Of a DNA stretch of 64,000 nt, positions 4,984 through 39,086 are shown in pieces. Origin of the DNA: Wickerhamiella versatilis. Taxonomy: Eukaryota. The notes under the pieces are model-generated. The model did not search any database. It was not told where the DNA came from and saw only the letters and a program-made list of their open reading frames with translations. How positions within the stretch are numbered: the first letter of the stretch is position 1; each line of letters begins with the position of its first letter. The translations under genes and the position numbers were made by a program. Location of the stretch: positions 1,054,001 through 1,118,000 of the forward strand of contig JAQOWU010000003.1 in assembly GCA_030867685.1 (NCBI GenBank), in the 5' to 3' direction.

Positions 4984-6591
4984 ATGAGTAGCTCTGAGGT
5001 TGGATTCAAGCGGAACAGAGCTCACAGTGAAAACTTTACCGACCCTACATACTTCGTAAACCACCCCTGGGCCGAGTATGCTTTCGTGGTGTCTGCTTTC
5101 TTATCGCAGGTGTTCACACAAGCCTCCACCAATACGCCTCTGGTTCAACTAAATGCTATCAGCAAACATTATGATGCGTCCTCTCTCGAGAGAACTTGGT
5201 TTCAGGCAAGCTTTTCCTTGAGCGCAGGTGCGTTGATTTTGGTTAGTGGCCGGATTGGTGATGTATATGGTCTGCGGCTGACCGCCCTATGGGGGTACTT
5301 GTGGTCAATTGTCTGGACTTTTCTCATAGGCGTATCTTTCTGGACTCGCAACATCGAGTTCTACATCGTCGGACGCGCATTACAAGGTGCTGGCATAGCG
5401 TTCGTGCTACCGAACCTTATGGGAATTGTTGGTAGGGTATATCAGCCCGGTACACATCGAAAAAATATGGTATTTGCTCTAATTGGAATGGGTGCACCCT
5501 TGGGTGGAATTTCAGGTGTCTTGTTTAGCGGGCTAATTACTGAGGAGACACCTGCATTCTATTGGGCATATTTCTCTACAGGAATCTCGATGTGCTTTGC
5601 TTTGGGACTTACTTGGTGGTCGGCACCTAAGGTTCCGGCTCTGGCAGATAGCGCAGCAGACGTAGATTGGATTGGATGTGGGTTGAGCGTTTCTGGACTT
5701 GTGCTTCTTAACTTCGTACTCAATCAAGCGCCAATAGTGGGATGGGATACCCCATACGTCATTGCGCTCATTGTGATATCAGTGGTTGTCTTGGCTGTGT
5801 TCATTTGGTATGAGCTCCATATACCCAAGACACCGCTGATCCCACCTGCTGTACTAAAAGCACCGCGGTTATTGACAGTGCTTTTGATGAAAAGCCTGGG
5901 CTGGGGCTCCTTTGGCATTCTTTTTTTCCATTACTTTACGTTTCTAATGGACTTTCGGCACTATAATCCTCTAGAAGCTGGCGCTTCTATTACGCACTGT
6001 TATTTATTTGGGTCTGTGGCTGCTGTAGCGTGTGGATATGCTATTCGTCATATACCGATACATTTCATTTTGATCTTTTCCATGGTTTGTTTCACCGGCG
6101 CTAGTGTCATGCAGGCAGTAACACCCGTTGATCAGACTTACTGGGCCTTAACATTTCCAACATGGATAGTATCGGTACTCTCTACCGACTCATCTTTTCC
6201 CTCTGGTTCCATTATCCTCAGTGAACATCTTCCTCCTGAGTATCAGGGTATGGCAGGTTCATTAATCAACACTGTAGTGAATTACTCGAACTCATTATTT
6301 CTCGGACTGTCCACCACTGTAGAGACTCAATATCAGAAAATGTATCCCGATAACCCGTTAATTGCATTCAGAGCGGCAATGTATTTCGCCATTGGGCTTG
6401 CAGCTGCAGGGCTCTTGCTGTCAATTGCGTTTACTGGACTTGAGATGTGGGAGGGCAAGGTGTTTCGCCCACACCCTGCGGCACGCACTTCGTCGGATGA
6501 TTATATAGGGCAAGACAATGACGCTGCGGAAAAAGAGTTTACTCCTGATATTACAGAAAAACAGGCCACTGTAAGTCTCGGCGAGAGATAG
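4984..6591 (+). CDS. ATR1: MFS drug:H+ antiporter (DHA2, Atr1-like)
   Basis: About 14 hydrophobic segments; SGRIGDVYG, RALQGAG, 'RKNMVFALIGMGAPLG' and 'QGMAGSLINTVVNYS' as in the Atr1 family. Confidence 0.8.
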   Translation: MSSSEVGFKRNRAHSENFTDPTYFVNHPWAEYAFVVSAFLSQVFTQASTNTPLVQLNAISKHYDASSLERTWFQASFSLSAGALILVSGRIGDVYGLRLTALWGYLWSIVWTFLIGVSFWTRNIEFYIVGRALQGAGIAFVLPNLMGIVGRVYQPGTHRKNMVFALIGMGAPLGGISGVLFSGLITEETPAFYWAYFSTGISMCFALGLTWWSAPKVPALADSAADVDWIGCGLSVSGLVLLNFVLNQAPIVGWDTPYVIALIVISVVVLAVFIWYELHIPKTPLIPPAVLKAPRLLTVLLMKSLGWGSFGILFFHYFTFLMDFRHYNPLEAGASITHCYLFGSVAAVACGYAIRHIPIHFILIFSMVCFTGASVMQAVTPVDQTYWALTFPTWIVSVLSTDSSFPSGSIILSEHLPPEYQGMAGSLINTVVNYSNSLFLGLSTTVETQYQKMYPDNPLIAFRAAMYFAIGLAAAGLLLSIAFTGLEMWEGKVFRPHPAARTSSDDYIGQDNDAAEKEFTPDITEKQATVSLGER

Positions 6592-6935
6592 ACCTATGCT
6601 ATCCAGTCTCAATACAATTCGTTAATTGATCGGGAATTGACGACTACAGTGACAGCAACTCAGAATCCAGCCTCATGCAATGCTTTATAATGTCAATTCT
6701 TTATTTTATTTATTCGTGTGTTATGTTTATACCCATATTCGTTTTTATAACTAACATTATGCAGTAATAATTAACTTACTACTTGAGACTGGCTAGAAAA
6801 TTTAAGACTGATGAATACCAAAACCAACGAGATTTCAACTTTTTATTTTCAAAGTGAGGCGTAAAGTGCTTCTAATTTTTCATATGCCGGAGTGGGGCTT
6901 CTAGTACCCGGGTTCGAGCTGAGTCAGCTTACCAA

Positions 6936-10076: not shown

Positions 10077-11699
10077 TTAGGCTGGCTGTGCTGTATTTGG
10101 CTGTGCTGTATCTAGTTTCATGGGTGTTTCTAGCGCGCATTCAACCGCTTTGACCAGCGGGGCCATCGCCGTAGCCACTGAATCCCTGAACGAACCCGAA
10201 TCTTGTAATACAGCAGCAATACGGTCCAAAGATTTTCTGAGGCCCTGCCTGAACTGCTTCGTGGGCTGATTTTGGGTCTGAGCTCTCCAGAAATGACGCA
10301 GGAATTCCTGGGTTGTAGCATGACAGCTAGTTACAGCATCTGTTTCAGCTAAGTGCTGATCTCCTGTCTCTTGCTGAACCAATTGATGCTCCAACAGCTC
10401 GTTTAGCGATGACTGAACTTGGGCACAAGCATCGTCCTCGCAGATCTCCTCGAGATTAATTGGAGCATTTCCTTTCAGAAGCTGGTAGCATAGCGTGTCA
10501 TTTTCTGTATGCTTATCATCAGAAACGTGGGTCTGCTGTTGAGAAGATACAGTGCGGACCTTCAAGGAAACAGTATTAGTGTCCTTTGGAGGATTCTCTA
10601 AATCCTCTAATCGTAGCTCTTGCTCCATATTCTCATCAGTGCGGCGTGCGTCCGCTTTTGTCCACTTTCCAACAAGCAATCTTTGACTTAAGCTATTCAT
10701 AGATCTGATGAGTCCAACCGCTGATCCACCATCGCCGATGTCATCCAGCCGCATTGTGAAGTCAGGCAGATTACCCAGAGTCTCTGGATTATCTTCCGCA
10801 TTACCCTCAGTATCCAAAAATAAAGGTACATGCTCATTCGAGGGATTCAGCTTCCTTCTCTTCCGCTGTTCATCAAGCAGGGTAATGTAACGATCAAGCA
10901 CACTATCTGGCTGAACGCTATTAACCTTTTCACCTTTGAGAGTCCGGAACAGCTTGGATTGAAAGAAACGTTGCCAAAAGAGACCTTCAGGCATTGGGGA
11001 TGGTACATTATCGTTGTAAGCCTTTCTAACAATAGGATATTGATCGAATATATCAGTGATTTTTTCGCGAGTTAGTGAAATATTGACCTGATTGTCACTA
11101 CCAGTAACAGGCTTGATTGTGCTCAAAACATTATAAGATCCTCGTACTTGTGCTCTTTCTTGTGCAGAGGTTATTAGGAGATCCATTCTTAGCTCCCAAA
11201 ATTGTTCATTCGTTAGAGCTCCTTTAATCACAGTTTCTTGGAAAGTCGCCATGAGCCCAGGGATTGCCTTCAATATCTGTCTTTGCAATTCCAGATTATG
11301 CAAGAGTTTTTTTGGATTTAAGTCTACCGTCGCTCGTTTTCGAGCGGCAGCTGGCTGTGGTTGGTTTTGTTTTTGTTGTTGAGCTGGTGCTGGCTTGGGG
11401 GTTTCAGGTTCAGCAGCGGCGGGTGAATGTGTTCGCTCTCTCGCAGACTTTATGGACAACTGTATGGAATTACGCGCGGTCTCGAGATGTGAAAGCTCAG
11501 AAAACTCAAGCATGAGCACGGTCGAGCCACTACTCAGCTTTATTCGTGGTTTCGCTGAGGTGGGTGGGGTCGCCTGCATACCAGTCACATCGACAAGTTT
11601 TATTGATTGCGTCTCTCCAGTATCAGCCACCCACTGAGCAACCTCATCGCTTAGGATTAAACGCCCTGGACGCTTCTTCACAGCGGCAGGAACCTGCAT
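10077..11699 (-). CDS. TFB1: TFIIH subunit p62 (PH + BSD domains)
   Basis: MQATP (PH domain) and BSD motifs 'EQFWELR', 'YNVLSTIKP', 'IFDQYPIVRKAY', 'FWQRFFQS'. Probable start ATG 11699; upstream in-frame ATG at 11777. Confidence 0.88.
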   Translation of the reverse strand: MQVPAAVKKRPGRLILSDEVAQWVADTGETQSIKLVDVTGMQATPPTSAKPRIKLSSGSTVLMLEFSELSHLETARNSIQLSIKSARERTHSPAAAEPETPKPAPAQQQKQNQPQPAAARKRATVDLNPKKLLHNLELQRQILKAIPGLMATFQETVIKGALTNEQFWELRMDLLITSAQERAQVRGSYNVLSTIKPVTGSDNQVNISLTREKITDIFDQYPIVRKAYNDNVPSPMPEGLFWQRFFQSKLFRTLKGEKVNSVQPDSVLDRYITLLDEQRKRRKLNPSNEHVPLFLDTEGNAEDNPETLGNLPDFTMRLDDIGDGGSAVGLIRSMNSLSQRLLVGKWTKADARRTDENMEQELRLEDLENPPKDTNTVSLKVRTVSSQQQTHVSDDKHTENDTLCYQLLKGNAPINLEEICEDDACAQVQSSLNELLEHQLVQQETGDQHLAETDAVTSCHATTQEFLRHFWRAQTQNQPTKQFRQGLRKSLDRIAAVLQDSGSFRDSVATAMAPLVKAVECALETPMKLDTAQPNTAQPA

Positions 11700-11720
11700 G
11701 TGCGCACGTAAGCGAGCGAA

Positions 11721-11756
11721 GTAGGTGTAGGTGTTGGTGTTGGTGTAGGTGTAGGT
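11721..11756. repeat. (GTWGGT)6 hexamer microsatellite just upstream of TFB1
   Basis: gtaggt gtaggt gttggt gttggt gtaggt gtaggt. Confidence 0.85.
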
Positions 11757-12192
11757 ATCCCCCCTGTTTCTGACCATATATAGGGACAGAAATGTGGGAT
11801 TATCATGAGATGGTTAGAATGATAATAACTTGAGTGGATACGGCAGCCTTGCATTTTGGCCAAGAGAATCTATGAGTTGACAGGAATTGCCAGCAAACAA
11901 ATTATTTTTTGGGGGAAAGTTGCCGTTTTTTTGCCAATGGAACATTTCAATTTGCGTTGGACTTCGAGGTAACGCCACACCCGTGAAAAGTCTGATATAT
12001 GTATCGTGGAAAAACATGGCATCCTTGTCCCTATTTATCAATATAAGCATTGAGACTATTCACGGTAGGTGCTACTTTTAGGTGAGATCGCAATTTATTC
12101 CTTGTACTACGTCAGTGTACCCATAAATCGTTGCTCCTGCATAAATGACACATTCTCGCATATACTTAACTAATCGGGATGAATTTACGAGC

Positions 12193-12200
12193 TATATAAA
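12193..12200 (+). promoter_or_regulatory. TATA box of THI4
   Basis: TATATAAA 48 nt upstream of the THI4 ATG. Confidence 0.6.
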
Positions 12201-12239
12201 GGGCCCGTTACCCACATTGCTTATTTCACAGAACATTAA

Positions 12240-13190
<951 letters not shown>

Positions 13191-13309
13191 CCATAACAAC
13201 ACTTCACGCAATACCTTCGTTTTAAGGAAGCGCACTCAGCCCTTAGGGCTTAGCAGCATGAAGGTAAGTATATATGAAAAACTAACAGAAACAGAGAAAA
13301 GGAAATCTT

Positions 13310-13386
13310 CCACAGCGGGTGCCCCTTCAGGGCTGAGATTATACCGTTTGCACTCGATCAAATTCGTATTTGCGAGAGGATTGTGG
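13310..13386 (+). ncRNA. TPP riboswitch aptamer 1 (THI4 3' region)
   Basis: P1 CCACA/TGTGG; P2 GCGG/CCGT; GGTGC; P3 GCCC/GGGC; CTGAGA; ATAC; P4 CTC/GAG; GATC; P5 CAAAT/ATTTG; GCG...GGA. All core TPP aptamer elements are present in the correct order. Confidence 0.88.
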
Positions 13387-13412
13387 GTGATCTAGATTAG
13401 TTTTCATTTTAT

Positions 13413-13494
13413 GGTCACGGCGGGTGCCTTGTAACGAGGCTGAGAGTATACCGTTTGCACTCGATCAAGTTCATGCTTGCGTGAGGACGCGACC
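13413..13494 (+). ncRNA. TPP riboswitch aptamer 2 (tandem copy)
   Basis: P1 GGTCACG/CGCGACC (6 of 7 pairs); GCGGGTGC; P3 GCCTTG/CGAGGC; CTGAGA; ATACCGT; P4 CTC/GAG; GATC; P5 CAAG-TTCAT-GCTTG; GCGTGAGGA. Confidence 0.9.
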
Positions 13495-13908
13495 CAATTA
13501 GAATTAGTTACTATCTTTAAAATACCTGTTCAGGGTTATGTGCAGGCGACGGTCTCCTGTGTCCTTAGAGAGGGTCTTTGTATTGCCCAAATATACACAA
13601 GGACAATGATCTGGGATTTGATTTGCACTACGCAAAGGAAACGAAGGTCGATTATTGGGTACAGGGAGTCGAAGTCGAGCGGTCTTAGAATTATTACTTG
13701 TTTATTGAAAGACACCCATATATTCCAGTACAATCAATAAATTTGCATCTTTGAGCAAATAAATTTTACCTGCCCAGAAATAGAAAGGTGGAAACTGCTT
13801 AATCCGTATGAAAATAGGGCCACCGAGCTTAGTACATAATACGACAATGACGTATGTGTGTCTGCAAGTTTAGTTAGCTATCTCGCTTAGTTAATCTGCG
13901 CATTGCAC

Positions 13909-14266
13909 ATGTCTGTCTCAAGTGCGGACTTGATGCCAACCAATATACCTGGTTCTGTCTTAGCAGCACTTCAGAAAGATTACTACATTTCTCCCTGCGG
14001 TAATCGTGTTGATGCGTTGCCTAAAGGTGCAAGTGCTTATTGTTGTGAAGACGGATCGTCTCGTATGCTAGAGCCAATTAATGAAAACGAACATGTAAAG
14101 TGTAGCAATGGTGAAGGTGGAAAAAAACTTTCTTGACGTTGGAGATATTTTGTGCTCTACAGAGGTTGAATTCAGTGAGGATGGCGTGAAAACATCATTT
14201 AAGGCTGAGAGGCTCATCGATGAAGCTCCACCATTACTTTCGGAGGTAGCACGGAAATTCTTATAA
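13909..14266 (+). pseudogene. Frameshifted paralogue of the adjacent Cys-rich orphan gene
   Basis: Aligns with 14520-14909 over its length. One extra A in the A7 run (14121-14127) causes TGA at 14134-14136, while the homologous frame continues (DVGDILCSTEVEFSEDG...PPLLSEVARKFL) to TAA 14264-14266. Confidence 0.7.
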
Positions 14267-14519
14267 TTCTTAACATCAGATACGTGTGGCTGAGGGTCAA
14301 ATTATGATTGCATAGAGATCAAATGACTTACGTGTTTAACATATTGACTCTCATAATGTGTACTAGGCGATAATTGTAATTTTTAGTGTTTAATATCAAT
14401 GCGTCGTTACATTACAAGTAGTTATGAGGCTGATAATTCAAGTCTAACACAGAATACACCAATGACGTATGTACCTGTAAGGTTAGTCAATTATCTTGCT
14501 TACTTAGTGCAGTTAGCAC

Positions 14520-14909
14520 ATGTCTATCTCAAGCATAATCGCAAATTCAACCAATACGCCTACTACCAGTTTAGCAACTTCGAGTGGCCCAGCTATAATA
14601 GAGTTTCATCCAGCTCCGTCTGGTTACTACAATACTGGTTGTGGAGATCACGCTTATGCGGTGCCTCATGGTGTGGTTACTTACTGTTGTGAAAATGGAG
14701 TATCCCATATACTATCGCCATTTGGTGCGAATGAACATCCGAAGTGTAGTAATGGTGAAGGTGGCAAGAACTTTCTTAGCGTTGGTGATGTGCTATGTAC
14801 AACTGAAGTTGAATTTAATGAGGATGGCTTGAAAACATCATTTAAGGCTTATAGGCTCATCGATGAGACCCCACCATTACTATCTGATGTGGTAAAGGGA
14901 CTGATATGA
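14520..14909 (+). CDS. Small Cys-containing orphan protein (129 aa), tandem-duplicated
   Basis: Codon-wise conservation with the upstream copy (YCCE.G.S..L.P...NEH.KCSNGEGGK) supports coding status. Confidence 0.7.
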   Translation: MSISSIIANSTNTPTTSLATSSGPAIIEFHPAPSGYYNTGCGDHAYAVPHGVVTYCCENGVSHILSPFGANEHPKCSNGEGGKNFLSVGDVLCTTEVEFNEDGLKTSFKAYRLIDETPPLLSDVVKGLI

Positions 14910-15448
14910 TGTAGATTTGTATCACCGCAAAAAAGAATAATGATTGCAGAGAGTTCAGCTAATTTATGCCAGAAATATATGGACTCTCTTGATGTACTTT
15001 GATTCTATATAGCCAATATTACTGTATATTAATGTTACAAGGCCCTGCCAAGTTTTCAATTCAGATAAAGGTCTTTGCATTGCATTGTCCAACCCTTACA
15101 AACTTTAAATGACCAGGATGCATAGCATGTAGAATACAAATCTTGGTTCTGATGGAAAAATTGGAAGCTAATTCGATAACTTGTATTACCGGAGCCCTCT
15201 CTGGGTGAAAACTGGCTACTCAAGGTACCCGGTTCAACTCAAGTTAGCAGTTCTTTCATTCCCAGCTTGATGCACAAACTAGGCGTTTAGATACGGTCTA
15301 CATCAGATCTTTTCTATAGCACTTTCCTGATTCGGTTTATCGTGTTTAAGCGATGTGAATATGGCAATATCCCGAATGTGGAAAGAATAAGAATGGTGTG
15401 GGACAAAAGAACCAGCCCTAGAGTGGTCTATAGACGTAGTTTACACAA

Positions 15449-27856: not shown

Positions 27857-27880
27857 TACAATCCAAAAAAAGAATCAAAG

Positions 27881-27964
27881 TGCCACCTAGCGGAATTGAA
27901 CCACTGACCTTTGCATGACTTCGTAAGTACAAGTGCAACGTTCTACCACTGAACTAAGGATGGC
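27881..27964 (-). tRNA. tRNA-Thr(UGU) with an 11-nt intron (27917-27927)
   Basis: Reverse complement: GCCATCCT TA GTTC AGTGGTA GAAC G TTGCA CT TGT A [CTTACGAAGTC] A TGCAA AGGTC AGTGG TTCAATT CCGCT AGGTGGC A. A T7 Pol III terminator follows at 27865-27871. Confidence 0.92.
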
Positions 27965-38210: not shown

Positions 38211-38583
38211 ATCGTCTAGTTTTAAACGAGATATAGCCGTCCTAGCAATATGCTTATTGATGTTTCTTACCGTTGAAGCATAATATGACCAGGCGTGGAG
38301 TATATAGTAGAATAATGCGGTCCCTTAAACTCATTGCTGAACGTATATGCAAACCTTATACTGCGACTAGCATGATTAAAGACAACAAAAAAAAATCCAT
38401 AAAAATCATTAAAAAACTACAATATACAATTACATTTACGCTTGAATTTCATGAATTTGGGTGGATCAGACAACATAATCCTCTGTATTATGTAAGTCAG
38501 GGCATCAGCCCTAAAATGCATTTGCTAACGCTGATAATTCACACAGTGCTTGGTCCTTAGGAATATACGAATAGTATACTAAC

Positions 38584-39086
38584 ATGGCGCCACAGGTATG
38601 TTAGCTGGTTTTGCTGAGCTCACTGCTAACACATGCTAAAGGGATTAACCTCTAGTATGTGTTTTTGCTGGTGGGACAAAAGCGCAGTAGGCTGGATGCT
38701 AACAATTACAGAAAAAGACCGCAAAGCAGGCTAAGAAGATTGTCTTGGATGCGTCCCACGCAAACCAGGAGACCACTATCTTCGACGTTGATGCTTTTGT
38801 GAAGTATTTGCGTGAACACATCAAGGTTGAGGGACGCACTGGCCAACTCGAGGACAAGATCACCGTCGAGGCAAAGGGCAACAAAGTCACCATCCTTTCG
38901 TTCATTGGATTCTCTGGCAAGTACCTTAAGTTCTTGACCAAGCGTTTCTTGAAGAAGAACGAGCTCCGGGACTGGCTCCGTGTTGTGGCCACCGCCCGCT
39001 CTTATTACGAAGTCCGCTTCTACAACTTGTCTGCCGATGAGGAGGAAGAGGAAGAAGAGGAGGAAGAAGAAGAGGACGAAGAGTAA
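38584..39086 (+). CDS. RPL22: 60S ribosomal protein L22 (eL22), spliced: join(38584..38595,38712..39086)
   Basis: ATG GCG CCA CAG|GTATGT...GCTAAC AATTA CAG|AAA AAG gives in-frame MAPQKKTAK...; 'FSGKYLKFLTKRFLKKNELRDWLRVVA'. Confidence 0.93.

Follow-up and report, generated by a model that had tools for sequence, protein, structure and literature searches.

A candidate expression platform between THI4 and two tandem thiamine pyrophosphate aptamers in the 3′ flank of a budding-yeast gene

In the yeast Wickerhamiella versatilis, the thiamine-biosynthesis gene THI4 (thiamine thiazole synthase) is followed on the same strand, 3′ of its stop codon, by two tandem thiamine pyrophosphate (TPP) aptamers, and the 114 nucleotides (nt) that run from the stop codon to aptamer 1 (13191-13304) probably constitute, judging from their sequence, an expression platform on the THI4 pre-mRNA. 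The window analyzed here is a 64,000-nt stretch of contig JAQOWU010000003.1; positions are those of the window, and features lie on the + strand unless a strand is given. The 114-nt segment contains four perfect blocks of complementarity to the aptamers as well as a consensus 5′ splice site that overlaps a plausible 3′-end signal. We tentatively read it as the platform of a 3′-untranslated region (UTR) riboswitch that acts on the THI4 pre-mRNA by setting the use of a proximal 3′ end against a non-productive fate, a reading to which we would give somewhat less than an even chance.

Two tandem TPP aptamers follow the THI4 stop codon

The THI4 open reading frame (ORF; 12249-13190) encodes 313 amino acids, needs no intron, and ends with a TAG stop codon at 13188-13190. 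The predicted protein is complete, with a Pfam Thi4 match over residues 51-290 (E = 8.9e-105), and a protein search returned 2920 of 6769 candidates at E ≤ 0.001, the best at 98%, 88%, and 89% identity. The closest named relatives, at 70-77% identity, belong to Nadsonia, Sugiyamaella, Dipodascopsis, Lipomyces, Blastobotrys, and Limtongia; judged by these Thi4 relatives, the host is an early-branching budding yeast. The window itself is gene-dense and intron-poor, and its long ORFs belong to ordinary eukaryotic housekeeping families.

Both aptamers match Rfam family RF00059 above its gathering cut-off of 54.3 bits and over model positions 1-105: aptamer 1 at 13305-13398 (60.4 bits, E = 2.3e-9) and aptamer 2 at 13410-13504 (67.0 bits, E = 5.5e-11), with a gap of ~11 nt between the two matches (13398 to 13410). 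In the cmscan alignments, the CUGAGA junction, the GCG of the P4/P5 arm, and stems P1-P5 are all present in both. The aptamers are copies of a unit of ~105-107 nt, with a 50-nt core that is 88% identical at a spacing of 107 nt. At four stem pairs, both bases differ between the copies while pairing is kept (two of these pairs lie in P1 and one each in P3 and P5); both copies therefore appear to have been kept foldable and functional. The two copies also differ at the P1/P2 junction, where aptamer 1 has an AG (13314-13315) and aptamer 2 has GG.

Apart from these two aptamers, only a single tRNA exceeded the Rfam cut-offs in the 64 kb. No aptamer was detected 5′ of THI4 in 11000-13190, even at E ≤ 5, and the same cmscan threshold over 11000-15200 returned only the same two TPP matches and a sub-threshold rox2 match of 24.9 bits, with no sign of a third aptamer or of a 5′ aptamer at THI4. 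An exact-pattern scan for the aptamer core in a collection of bacterial and archaeal genomes gave 0 matches. Separately, the stretch behind aptamer 2 at 13622-13705 (+) may be a degenerate third repeat unit in which TTTGCACT and TTAGAATTA recur; it aligns locally to unit 2 with a score of 34, where shuffles give 21.2 ± 4.0 (P = 0.008), and yields no Rfam signal.

The segment upstream of aptamer 1 is complementary to the aptamers

Compared with the aptamer array, the segment 13191-13304 contains four perfect Watson-Crick blocks of at least 8 nt, here termed A, B, C, and D. Block D (5′ strand CUCAGCCCU, 13235-13243) is a perfect 9-nt complement of 13329-13337, the 3′ strand of P3 and the CUGAG core of aptamer 1, and additionally forms 7 base pairs with 13438-13444 of aptamer 2. 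The partner of block C (5′ strand CUUCACGCAA, 13202-13211) is 13477-13486, the P5/P4 3′ strand with the GCG motif in aptamer 2; the two match through a perfect 8-nt run (13204-13211 with 13477-13484) that reaches 10 base pairs with one G-U in the minimum free energy (MFE) structure. Block A (5′ strand AGCAUGAA, 13255-13262) pairs with 13470-13477, with an isolated duplex energy of −9.1 kcal/mol, and block B (5′ strand 13278-13285) forms a perfect 8-nt match with 13397-13404 in the linker after aptamer 1. The block A sequence AGCATGAA is the exact reverse complement of TTCATGCT, and each occurs once per strand in the window; in the Rfam alignment, its target on aptamer 2 comprises loop L5 (13470-13475) and the two bases that open the 3′ strand of P5 (13476-13477). 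Together, the targets of blocks A and C form one continuous run, 13470-13486, and so take up all of the 3′ half of that aptamer's pyrophosphate-sensing arm.

The number of such blocks is unusual. Dinucleotide shuffles of the segment gave on average 0.24 runs of at least 8 nt, and none of 400 reached four; for runs of at least 7 nt, the segment has six against a shuffle mean of 0.93, and again 0 of 400 shuffles reached six. Among 2210 genomic windows of 114 nt, one had at least four blocks and 14 had at least three, and no run of at least 8 nt was found in the last 114 nt of the coding sequence or in three downstream 114-nt flanks. The best single duplex energy between the UTR and the array was no better than in shuffles (P = 0.54), and the complementarity signal is thus the number of perfect blocks, not the total duplex energy. 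Taken alone, block A is marginal (P ~0.05): 5.0% of 20,000 shuffles of a 28-nt donor window, and 4.7% of 18,150 genomic 28-mers, are perfectly complementary to the aptamers over at least 8 nt. The segment was also considered as a decayed direct or inverted copy of an aptamer, and this was rejected: collinear local alignments scored no higher than those of shuffles (P = 0.34-0.48), and the three-way alignment was unconvincing.

Three further complementarities were seen around the segment. A local anti-donor strand, UACCUUCGU (13212-13220), can pair with AUGAAGGUA (13258-13266) across the exon/intron junction; this pairing appears in the constrained MFE structure with aptamer 1 native and has a probability of 0.01-0.03 in the free ensemble. 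The same upstream region is one arm of a 10-nt perfect inverted repeat, ACCTTCGTTT (13213-13222) and AAACGAAGGT (13639-13648), whose arms lie 416 nt apart; the upstream arm ACCTTCGTTT is also the local anti-donor, and the downstream arm AAACGAAGGT mimics the GAAGGT of the donor region. Finally, the last THI4 codons, CTATGGAAGA (13177-13186), are 90% complementary to TCTTCCACAG (13306-13315) in the 5′ flank and the P1 5′ strand of aptamer 1. The pair CTATGGAAGA and TCTTCCACAG could represent an anti-P1 contact that reaches into the coding sequence.

A consensus 5′ splice site motif overlaps a candidate 3′-end signal

An initial annotation of this region had described a splice donor with an embedded 3′-end signal, and direct reading and motif searches located every motif that it named. 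The consensus 5′ splice site GTAAGT (13264-13269), directly preceded by AAG and with its G 74 nt past the stop codon, is the only consensus donor in the THI4 UTR. Its last base is shared with TATATA (13269-13274), a candidate poly(A) efficiency element, which is followed by an A-rich tract (13275-13304, 63% A) that may act as the positioning element or cleavage zone and that holds the 5′ strand of block B. Inside this tract lies ACTAAC-AGAAA-CAG (13281-13294), a branch site and 3′ splice site motif with ACTAAC at 13281-13286, AG at 13287-13288, and CAG at 13292-13294. Farther downstream are a distal acceptor candidate, TTCAG (13529-13533, with CAG at 13531-13533), which has a good pyrimidine context, and a cluster resembling poly(A) signals (13718-13763) with ATATAT at 13718 and AATAAA at 13736 and 13758, which may serve as a distal 3′ end.

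The co-occurrence of these motifs is rare in the window. On both strands together, GTAAGT occurs 33 times and ACTAAC 21 times; among 12,739 windows of 114 nt, GTAAGT is present in 2.7%, ACTAAC in 1.7%, both in 0.024%, and relaxed donor and branch motifs in 0.9%, and none (0/12,739) combines GTAAGT, ACTAAC, and TATATA. In the 200-nt 3′ flanks of 35 ORFs, TATATA is 3.8-fold enriched (1.89 versus 0.50 per kb genome-wide; present in 8 of the 35 flanks), and AATAAA is enriched ~3-fold (1.60 versus 0.52 per kb). The enrichment of TATATA makes it reasonable to read this motif as a 3′-end efficiency element in this genome, and TATATA 13269-13274 is a plausible candidate for such an element, in line with the overlap of donor and 3′-end signal that had been annotated.

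The window contains one verified intron, that of RPL22, against which these motifs can be compared. The RPL22 start codon (38489-38491) is followed directly by a GTAAGT donor at 38492, and exon 2, from 38712, has a Pfam Ribosomal_L22e match that begins at profile position 1 (E = 2.3e-36). The intron of 220 nt, which together with the start codon spans 38489-38711 (+), ends in GCTAAC-AATTA-CAG at 38698-38711. The donor hexamer in the THI4 flank is identical to that of RPL22, and ACTAAC-AGAAA-CAG shares with the RPL22 intron end the five-base spacing from branch motif to CAG. In the two intron-end examples of the window, the AG lies 9-10 nt past the branch adenosine; that of RPL22 is confirmed, and the other, near the end of an MFS transporter gene, is at the motif level only. 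Like the two aptamers, the motifs themselves, and the surplus of complementary blocks, this signal grammar of the genome is directly observed.

Two side observations concern the same examples. The RPL22 intron contains TACTAAC-ATGGCGCCA-CAG directly abutting GTATGT (38577-38601), and this juxtaposition of an acceptor and a donor could be a nested or recursive splice site. At the end of the MFS transporter ORF (4984-6591), GTAAGT stands at a codon boundary, with ACTAAC-ATTATG-CAG 179 nt farther on and a TAA directly after it (6571-6767, +). This set of motifs could be an intron spanning the stop codon, with ~6 such donor/branch combinations expected by chance and 6 seen.

Related yeasts use similar signals. 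A short distance from branch to AG and ACTAAC or GCTAAC branch motifs are reported for Yarrowia and Blastobotrys, with GTAAGT donors in Blastobotrys and a preference for GTGAGT in Yarrowia (PMC4022394, PMC2911113, PMC13309789). According to RNA-seq of Yarrowia lipolytica, 118 introns have donors in 3′ UTRs and form the least efficiently spliced class, and called intron sizes go down to 20 nt (PMC13309789).

What remains difficult is the pairing of donor and acceptor in the THI4 flank. The gap between donor and ACTAAC is 11 nt (17 nt start to start), the branch adenosine lies 21 nt from the donor, and introns from 13264 would measure 31 nt to CAG 13294 or 52 nt to AG 13315. Other than the one at 13281, no NCTRAY branch motif is present in 13249-13684, so none serves CAG 13533. 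This distal acceptor, which had already been noted as lacking a canonical branch site, was set aside for the lack of any NCTRAY in 13287-13684. We also considered an upstream donor for ACTAAC-CAG, namely GTAAGT 12297 (codons 16-18), the only consensus donor in THI4. Its use would excise nearly the whole coding sequence, and it was dropped as a chance occurrence (~0.2 expected in a 942-nt ORF) with no other support.

Predicted structures with and without native aptamers

Folding was modeled with ViennaRNA and is indicative only; helix probabilities were computed over five sequence contexts, four of which contain block C. Block D had probabilities of 0.94, 0.94, 0.94, 0.98, and 0.39 across the five contexts, and block C had 0.88, 0.86, 0.43, and 0.00 in its four, so that the predicted ligand-free ensemble of 13191-13545 is dominated by these two blocks. 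Helix A, the pairing of block A with aptamer 2, reached 0.02, 0.02, 0.01, 0.00, and 0.54, the last value only in a truncated context. The ensemble energies were −95.8 kcal/mol for the free ensemble, −95.2 with C and D forced (a cost of 0.6), −93.0 with helix A forced (a cost of 2.8), and −85.6 with both aptamers forced native (a cost of ~10). With aptamer 1 alone forced native, the probability of helix A was 0.22-0.89, and with aptamer 2 native, it was 0.

In the free-state MFE structure, block D continues into an irregular hairpin (13235-13265 with 13305-13337) with a 39-nt loop that displays UAUAUA, the A-rich tract, and the branch site, and the donor sequence GAAG/GU is paired with AUCUUC (13305-13310). 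When both aptamers were native, the unpaired probability of the A-rich tract fell in all three contexts (from 0.87 to 0.33, 0.53 to 0.29, and 0.89 to 0.23), as did that of the branch site (from 0.69 to 0.20, 0.39 to 0.18, and 0.70 to 0.14). This predicted masking can be attributed to a possible stem P0, formed in the constrained MFE structure by 13274-13292 and, as its 3′ strand, the linker after aptamer 1 (13387-13407), which extends P1 of aptamer 1.

The ligand-free models thus show the 3′-end signal exposed and the donor partly masked, mainly via aptamer 1 and block D. The polarity proposed in the initial annotation, with a masked donor and a short mRNA at low TPP, is in this respect reproduced by the models, although its supposed cause, helix A, is not.

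Proposed mechanism and alternative explanations

From these models and motifs, we infer which helices form in the cell, which way the switch works, and what becomes of the long RNA, as follows. A proximal 3′-end signal (UAUAUA and the A-rich tract) would lie ~80-110 nt after the stop codon, overlapped by the donor and with the branch and 3′ splice site motif inside it. Without TPP, block D would hold aptamer 1 open at P3 and the CUGAG core, blocks C and A would occupy L5 and the 3′ strand of P4/P5 in aptamer 2, and the 3′-end signal would be single-stranded, allowing proximal cleavage and polyadenylation and a short productive mRNA. With TPP, both aptamers would fold and release the blocks, aptamer 2 would let go of the donor flank, and P1 of aptamer 1 could extend outward over the A-rich tract and the branch site. 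The proximal site would then be used less, and transcripts would either (i) read through to the signals at 13718-13763, giving a 3′ UTR of ~550-600 nt, or (ii) be engaged by the splicing machinery at GUAAGU. If the long-UTR or spliced RNA is poorly expressed, the outcome would be feedback repression of THI4.

A variant of this mechanism, which we regard as a minority possibility, is a dual-aptamer switch with one shared platform that gates the choice of poly(A) site directly via the composite element GUAAGUAUAUA. Within GUAAGUAUAUA, U1 bound at GUAAGU would compete with the cleavage and polyadenylation machinery at UAUAUA and the A-rich tract for overlapping RNA, and the winner at GUAAGUAUAUA would be set by TPP occupancy of the two aptamers through blocks C, D, and A and the extension of P1. 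In that case, donor and branch site would not be ordinary intron ends but an unspliced decoy, a signal for retention, or a micro-intron.

Several points weigh against the riboswitch platform that we favor. The platform is read from a single sequence, and the use of both the proximal and the distal poly(A) sites is suggested by motifs. Donor and branch site stand closer together than an ordinary yeast intron would allow; the shortest introns of Saccharomyces cerevisiae are ~52 nt, and their donor-to-branch distance is much longer. In the folding models, helix A is a minor species in four of the five contexts, out-competed by C and D; with the aptamers native, the accessibility of the efficiency element drops in only two of three contexts, and the unpaired probability of the donor changes without a consistent sign (0.50 to 0.20, 0.48 to 0.84, and 0.50 to 0.14). 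The energy of stem P0 (−9.4 kcal/mol) is no better than that of shuffles (P = 0.14-0.16), because an A-rich strand faces a U-rich one, and folding of the whole region is likewise no better than shuffles (MFE z = 0.06 and 0.96). Lastly, conserved 3′-UTR TPP aptamers of diatoms are reported to have given no thiamine response (PMC9544697), so that a good 3′-UTR aptamer does not guarantee regulation.

Taken literally, the initial annotation follows the plant THIC scheme: helix A masks the donor at low TPP and gives a short stable mRNA, and high TPP frees the donor so that a true intron is spliced from 13264 to 13288 or 13294 or to 13533 (or, as a further candidate, to AG 13315), which removes the 3′-end signal and leaves an unstable long-UTR mRNA. 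We consider this scheme unlikely. The 8-nt complement behind it is exact, as had been claimed, and unique in the window, and it targets the L5/P5 arm on which known switches of plants and fungi rely; nevertheless, its chance probability alone is ~0.05, and its helix stands at 0.00-0.02 in four of the five contexts and 2.8 kcal/mol above the free ensemble when forced. The dependence of helix A on the aptamers (0.22-0.89 with aptamer 1 alone native, 0 with aptamer 2 native) agrees with the scheme, whereas the inconsistent sign of donor accessibility does not bear out a donor freed by native aptamers, and native aptamers are predicted to mask the branch site and not to expose it. As for the intron, the donor, ACTAAC-N5-CAG, and their co-occurrence statistics fit, and Yarrowia lipolytica provides 118 introns with 3′-UTR donors and introns called down to 20 nt (PMC13309789), but the 21 nt from donor to branch leave an intron of 31 nt, or of 52 nt to AG 13315. 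This AG, where P1 meets P2 in aptamer 1, resembles the P2 acceptor of plants and algae, yet an AG 9-10 nt after the branch adenosine is what the confirmed RPL22 intron and the motif-level MFS example have; CAG 13533 is without a branch motif. The proposed acceptor ACTAAC-AGAAA-CAG has the intron-end spacing of this genome but sits only 17 nt past the donor, and none of the candidates considered makes a workable acceptor. What endures of the THIC-like interpretation is the platform, now backed by four perfect blocks that 0 of 400 shuffles and one of 2210 genomic windows attain, together with the overlap of donor and 3′-end signal and the precedent; helix A, the release of the donor, and the acceptor are not supported.

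The other alternatives give the splice-like motifs no role in THI4 expression. It is distinctly unlikely, in our view, that the aptamers regulate or mark the THI4 RNA with these motifs unused, be it by a structural effect on decay or 3′ processing or with no thiamine response at all. The unresponsive diatom 3′-UTR aptamers are a precedent for this (PMC9544697), and the impossible-looking 31-nt intron, the missing distal branch site, and the unexceptional region-wide folding energy would all agree, but GTAAGT and ACTAAC jointly occur in only 0.024% of 114-nt windows, the ACTAAC-N5-CAG spacing is that of the verified RPL22 intron, and the surplus of complementary blocks favors an RNA switch. Very unlikely is a separate downstream transcript, be it noncoding or a leader that belongs to the small-protein genes at 13909-14266 and 14520-14909; TATATA 13269 would be its TATA box, and the donor and branch motifs would be unrelated to THI4. 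In its favor, TATATA stands 36 nt upstream of aptamer 1, the aptamers lie beyond a normal-looking THI4 3′-end signal, and Brettanomyces TPP riboswitches are reported in small transcripts of low coding potential at most 1.5 kb from a thiamine gene (PMC5997356). The main argument against it is that three of the four blocks (13204-13211, 13235-13243, and 13255-13262) are upstream of TATATA, the first starting 12 nt after the stop codon, and can therefore meet the aptamers only in an RNA that begins in THI4. Moreover, there is no intron architecture around the aptamers on the downstream side, and the downstream proteins have no Pfam family, only two database relatives, and no link to thiamine, the nearer copy being frameshifted.

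Other features of the window

The genes downstream of the aptamers (13909-14266 and 14520-14909, +) are tandem paralogues of a small lineage-specific protein of 129 amino acids, each preceded by a common CAATGACGTATGT ~45-50 nt before its ATG; a frameshift interrupts the upstream copy (13909-14266) at an A-run close to 14120. For the downstream protein, no Pfam family and no Atlas match were found, and two relatives were recovered among 19 candidates; on these grounds, it was dropped as a candidate for the regulated gene. The tRNA gene at 27880-27964 (−) has a 13-nt intron and scores 45.8 bits in Rfam; ARAGORN in bacterial mode did not assign its anticodon.

Comparison with known riboswitches

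To our knowledge, eukaryotic riboswitches are few, and every characterized one senses TPP. All characterized eukaryotic TPP riboswitches are reported to work by alternative splicing (PMC9544697), and pairing of the ligand-free P4/P5 arm with the flank of a 5′ splice site, the masking mechanism that the initial annotation invoked, is indeed documented for plant and fungal TPP riboswitches (PMC3597705). In position and 3′-end signals, there is a likeness to THIC of the diatom Phaeodactylum, whose aptamers also lie in the 3′ UTR, with a poly(A) signal near or overlapping P1 and with alternative polyadenylation proposed; the diatom elements are described without splice signals, whereas the THI4 flank has strong splice signals and significant complementarity to the aptamers (PMC9544697). 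Should the THI4 aptamers prove unresponsive like those of diatoms, the question of what conserved 3′-UTR aptamers are for would be sharpened.

Two complete aptamers in series on one mRNA are also known from bacterial tandem TPP riboswitches such as that of Bacillus anthracis tenA, and two TPP aptamers in series could sharpen the dose response. The bacterial tandems are described as two full switches, each with its own terminator platform (PMC9481103), unlike the 105-107-nt repeat seen here, which leaves no room for a separate platform and whose candidate platform is shared and upstream. That tandem-riboswitch review does not mention eukaryotes or fungi (PMC9481103).

Among fungi, the Neurospora crassa NMT1 and THI4 switches (Cheah et al. 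2007) and NCU01977 share with the present case a thiamine gene in a fungal host; pairing of P4/P5 with a donor flank and long-range pairing from the aptamer to upstream sequence, as reported for the NMT1/NCU01977 type (PMC3597705), would be further features in common. In the NMT1/THI4 intron type, however, the aptamers lie inside introns of the 5′ UTR or coding region and act on alternative donors, upstream ORFs, or stop codons, while here both aptamers come after the stop codon, outside any recognizable intron, and none lies 5′ of THI4. The TPP riboswitches of budding yeasts (DUR31, and THI4 in Pichiaceae, the Yarrowia clade, and Ascoidea; Donovan 2018) belong to the same subphylum and, for THI4, to the same gene, and the present region shares GTAAGT, ACTAAC-type signals, and a short branch-to-AG spacing with the Yarrowia/Blastobotrys clade. 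Those THI4 riboswitches are described as lying in introns (PMC5997356, Donovan 2018) or, in Blastobotrys adeninivorans, in the 5′ region (PMC4022394), unlike the tandem arrangement 3′ of the stop codon seen here. Within the texts covered, our literature searches found no report of a 3′-UTR or tandem fungal TPP riboswitch, and an earlier listing elsewhere is possible; these texts place fungal TPP riboswitches only in internal or 5′-UTR introns and tandem TPP sensors only in bacteria. "3 UTR" does not occur in the main text of Mukherjee 2018, nor do "3 UTR" or "tandem" in the ACS Omega 2024 survey. If direct gating of poly(A)-site choice were true, this would be the first fungal 3′-UTR riboswitch and the first eukaryotic tandem TPP sensor, with a mechanism other than the alternative splicing of characterized eukaryotic TPP riboswitches.

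The 3′-UTR switch of Arabidopsis THIC, described by Wachter et al. in 2007, is said to choose between a short productive and a long unproductive 3′ UTR, and a choice of this kind is what we propose for THI4. The two systems have in common an aptamer in the 3′ UTR of a thiamine-biosynthesis gene. Two further THIC features, an upstream 5′ splice site whose flank can pair with the P4/P5 arm and a 3′-end signal between donor and aptamer, have candidate counterparts at THI4 in GTAAGT with block A (P ~0.05 alone) and in TATATA with the A-rich tract after the donor, within a putative intron. They differ in that the present host is a fungus, the gene is THI4, and the aptamers are two in tandem; in addition, donor and efficiency element share a base here, the single branch site is 17 nt away from the donor, and the helix at the donor flank is predicted to be outweighed by no fewer than two other anti-aptamer blocks (C and D). 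AG 13314-13315, where P1 and P2 of aptamer 1 join, may likewise correspond to the AG near the aptamer start in plants and green algae, in which P2 holds the 3′ splice site (PMC9544697). A fungal THI4 with two post-stop aptamers and a mixed platform would extend the plant THIC principle to fungi, and the likeness would mean either convergence or an arrangement much older than thought. It would also give a compact, genetically tractable yeast system in which RNA structure arbitrates between splicing and 3′-end formation, and it may be a natural part for ligand-controlled 3′-UTR switches in yeast engineering.

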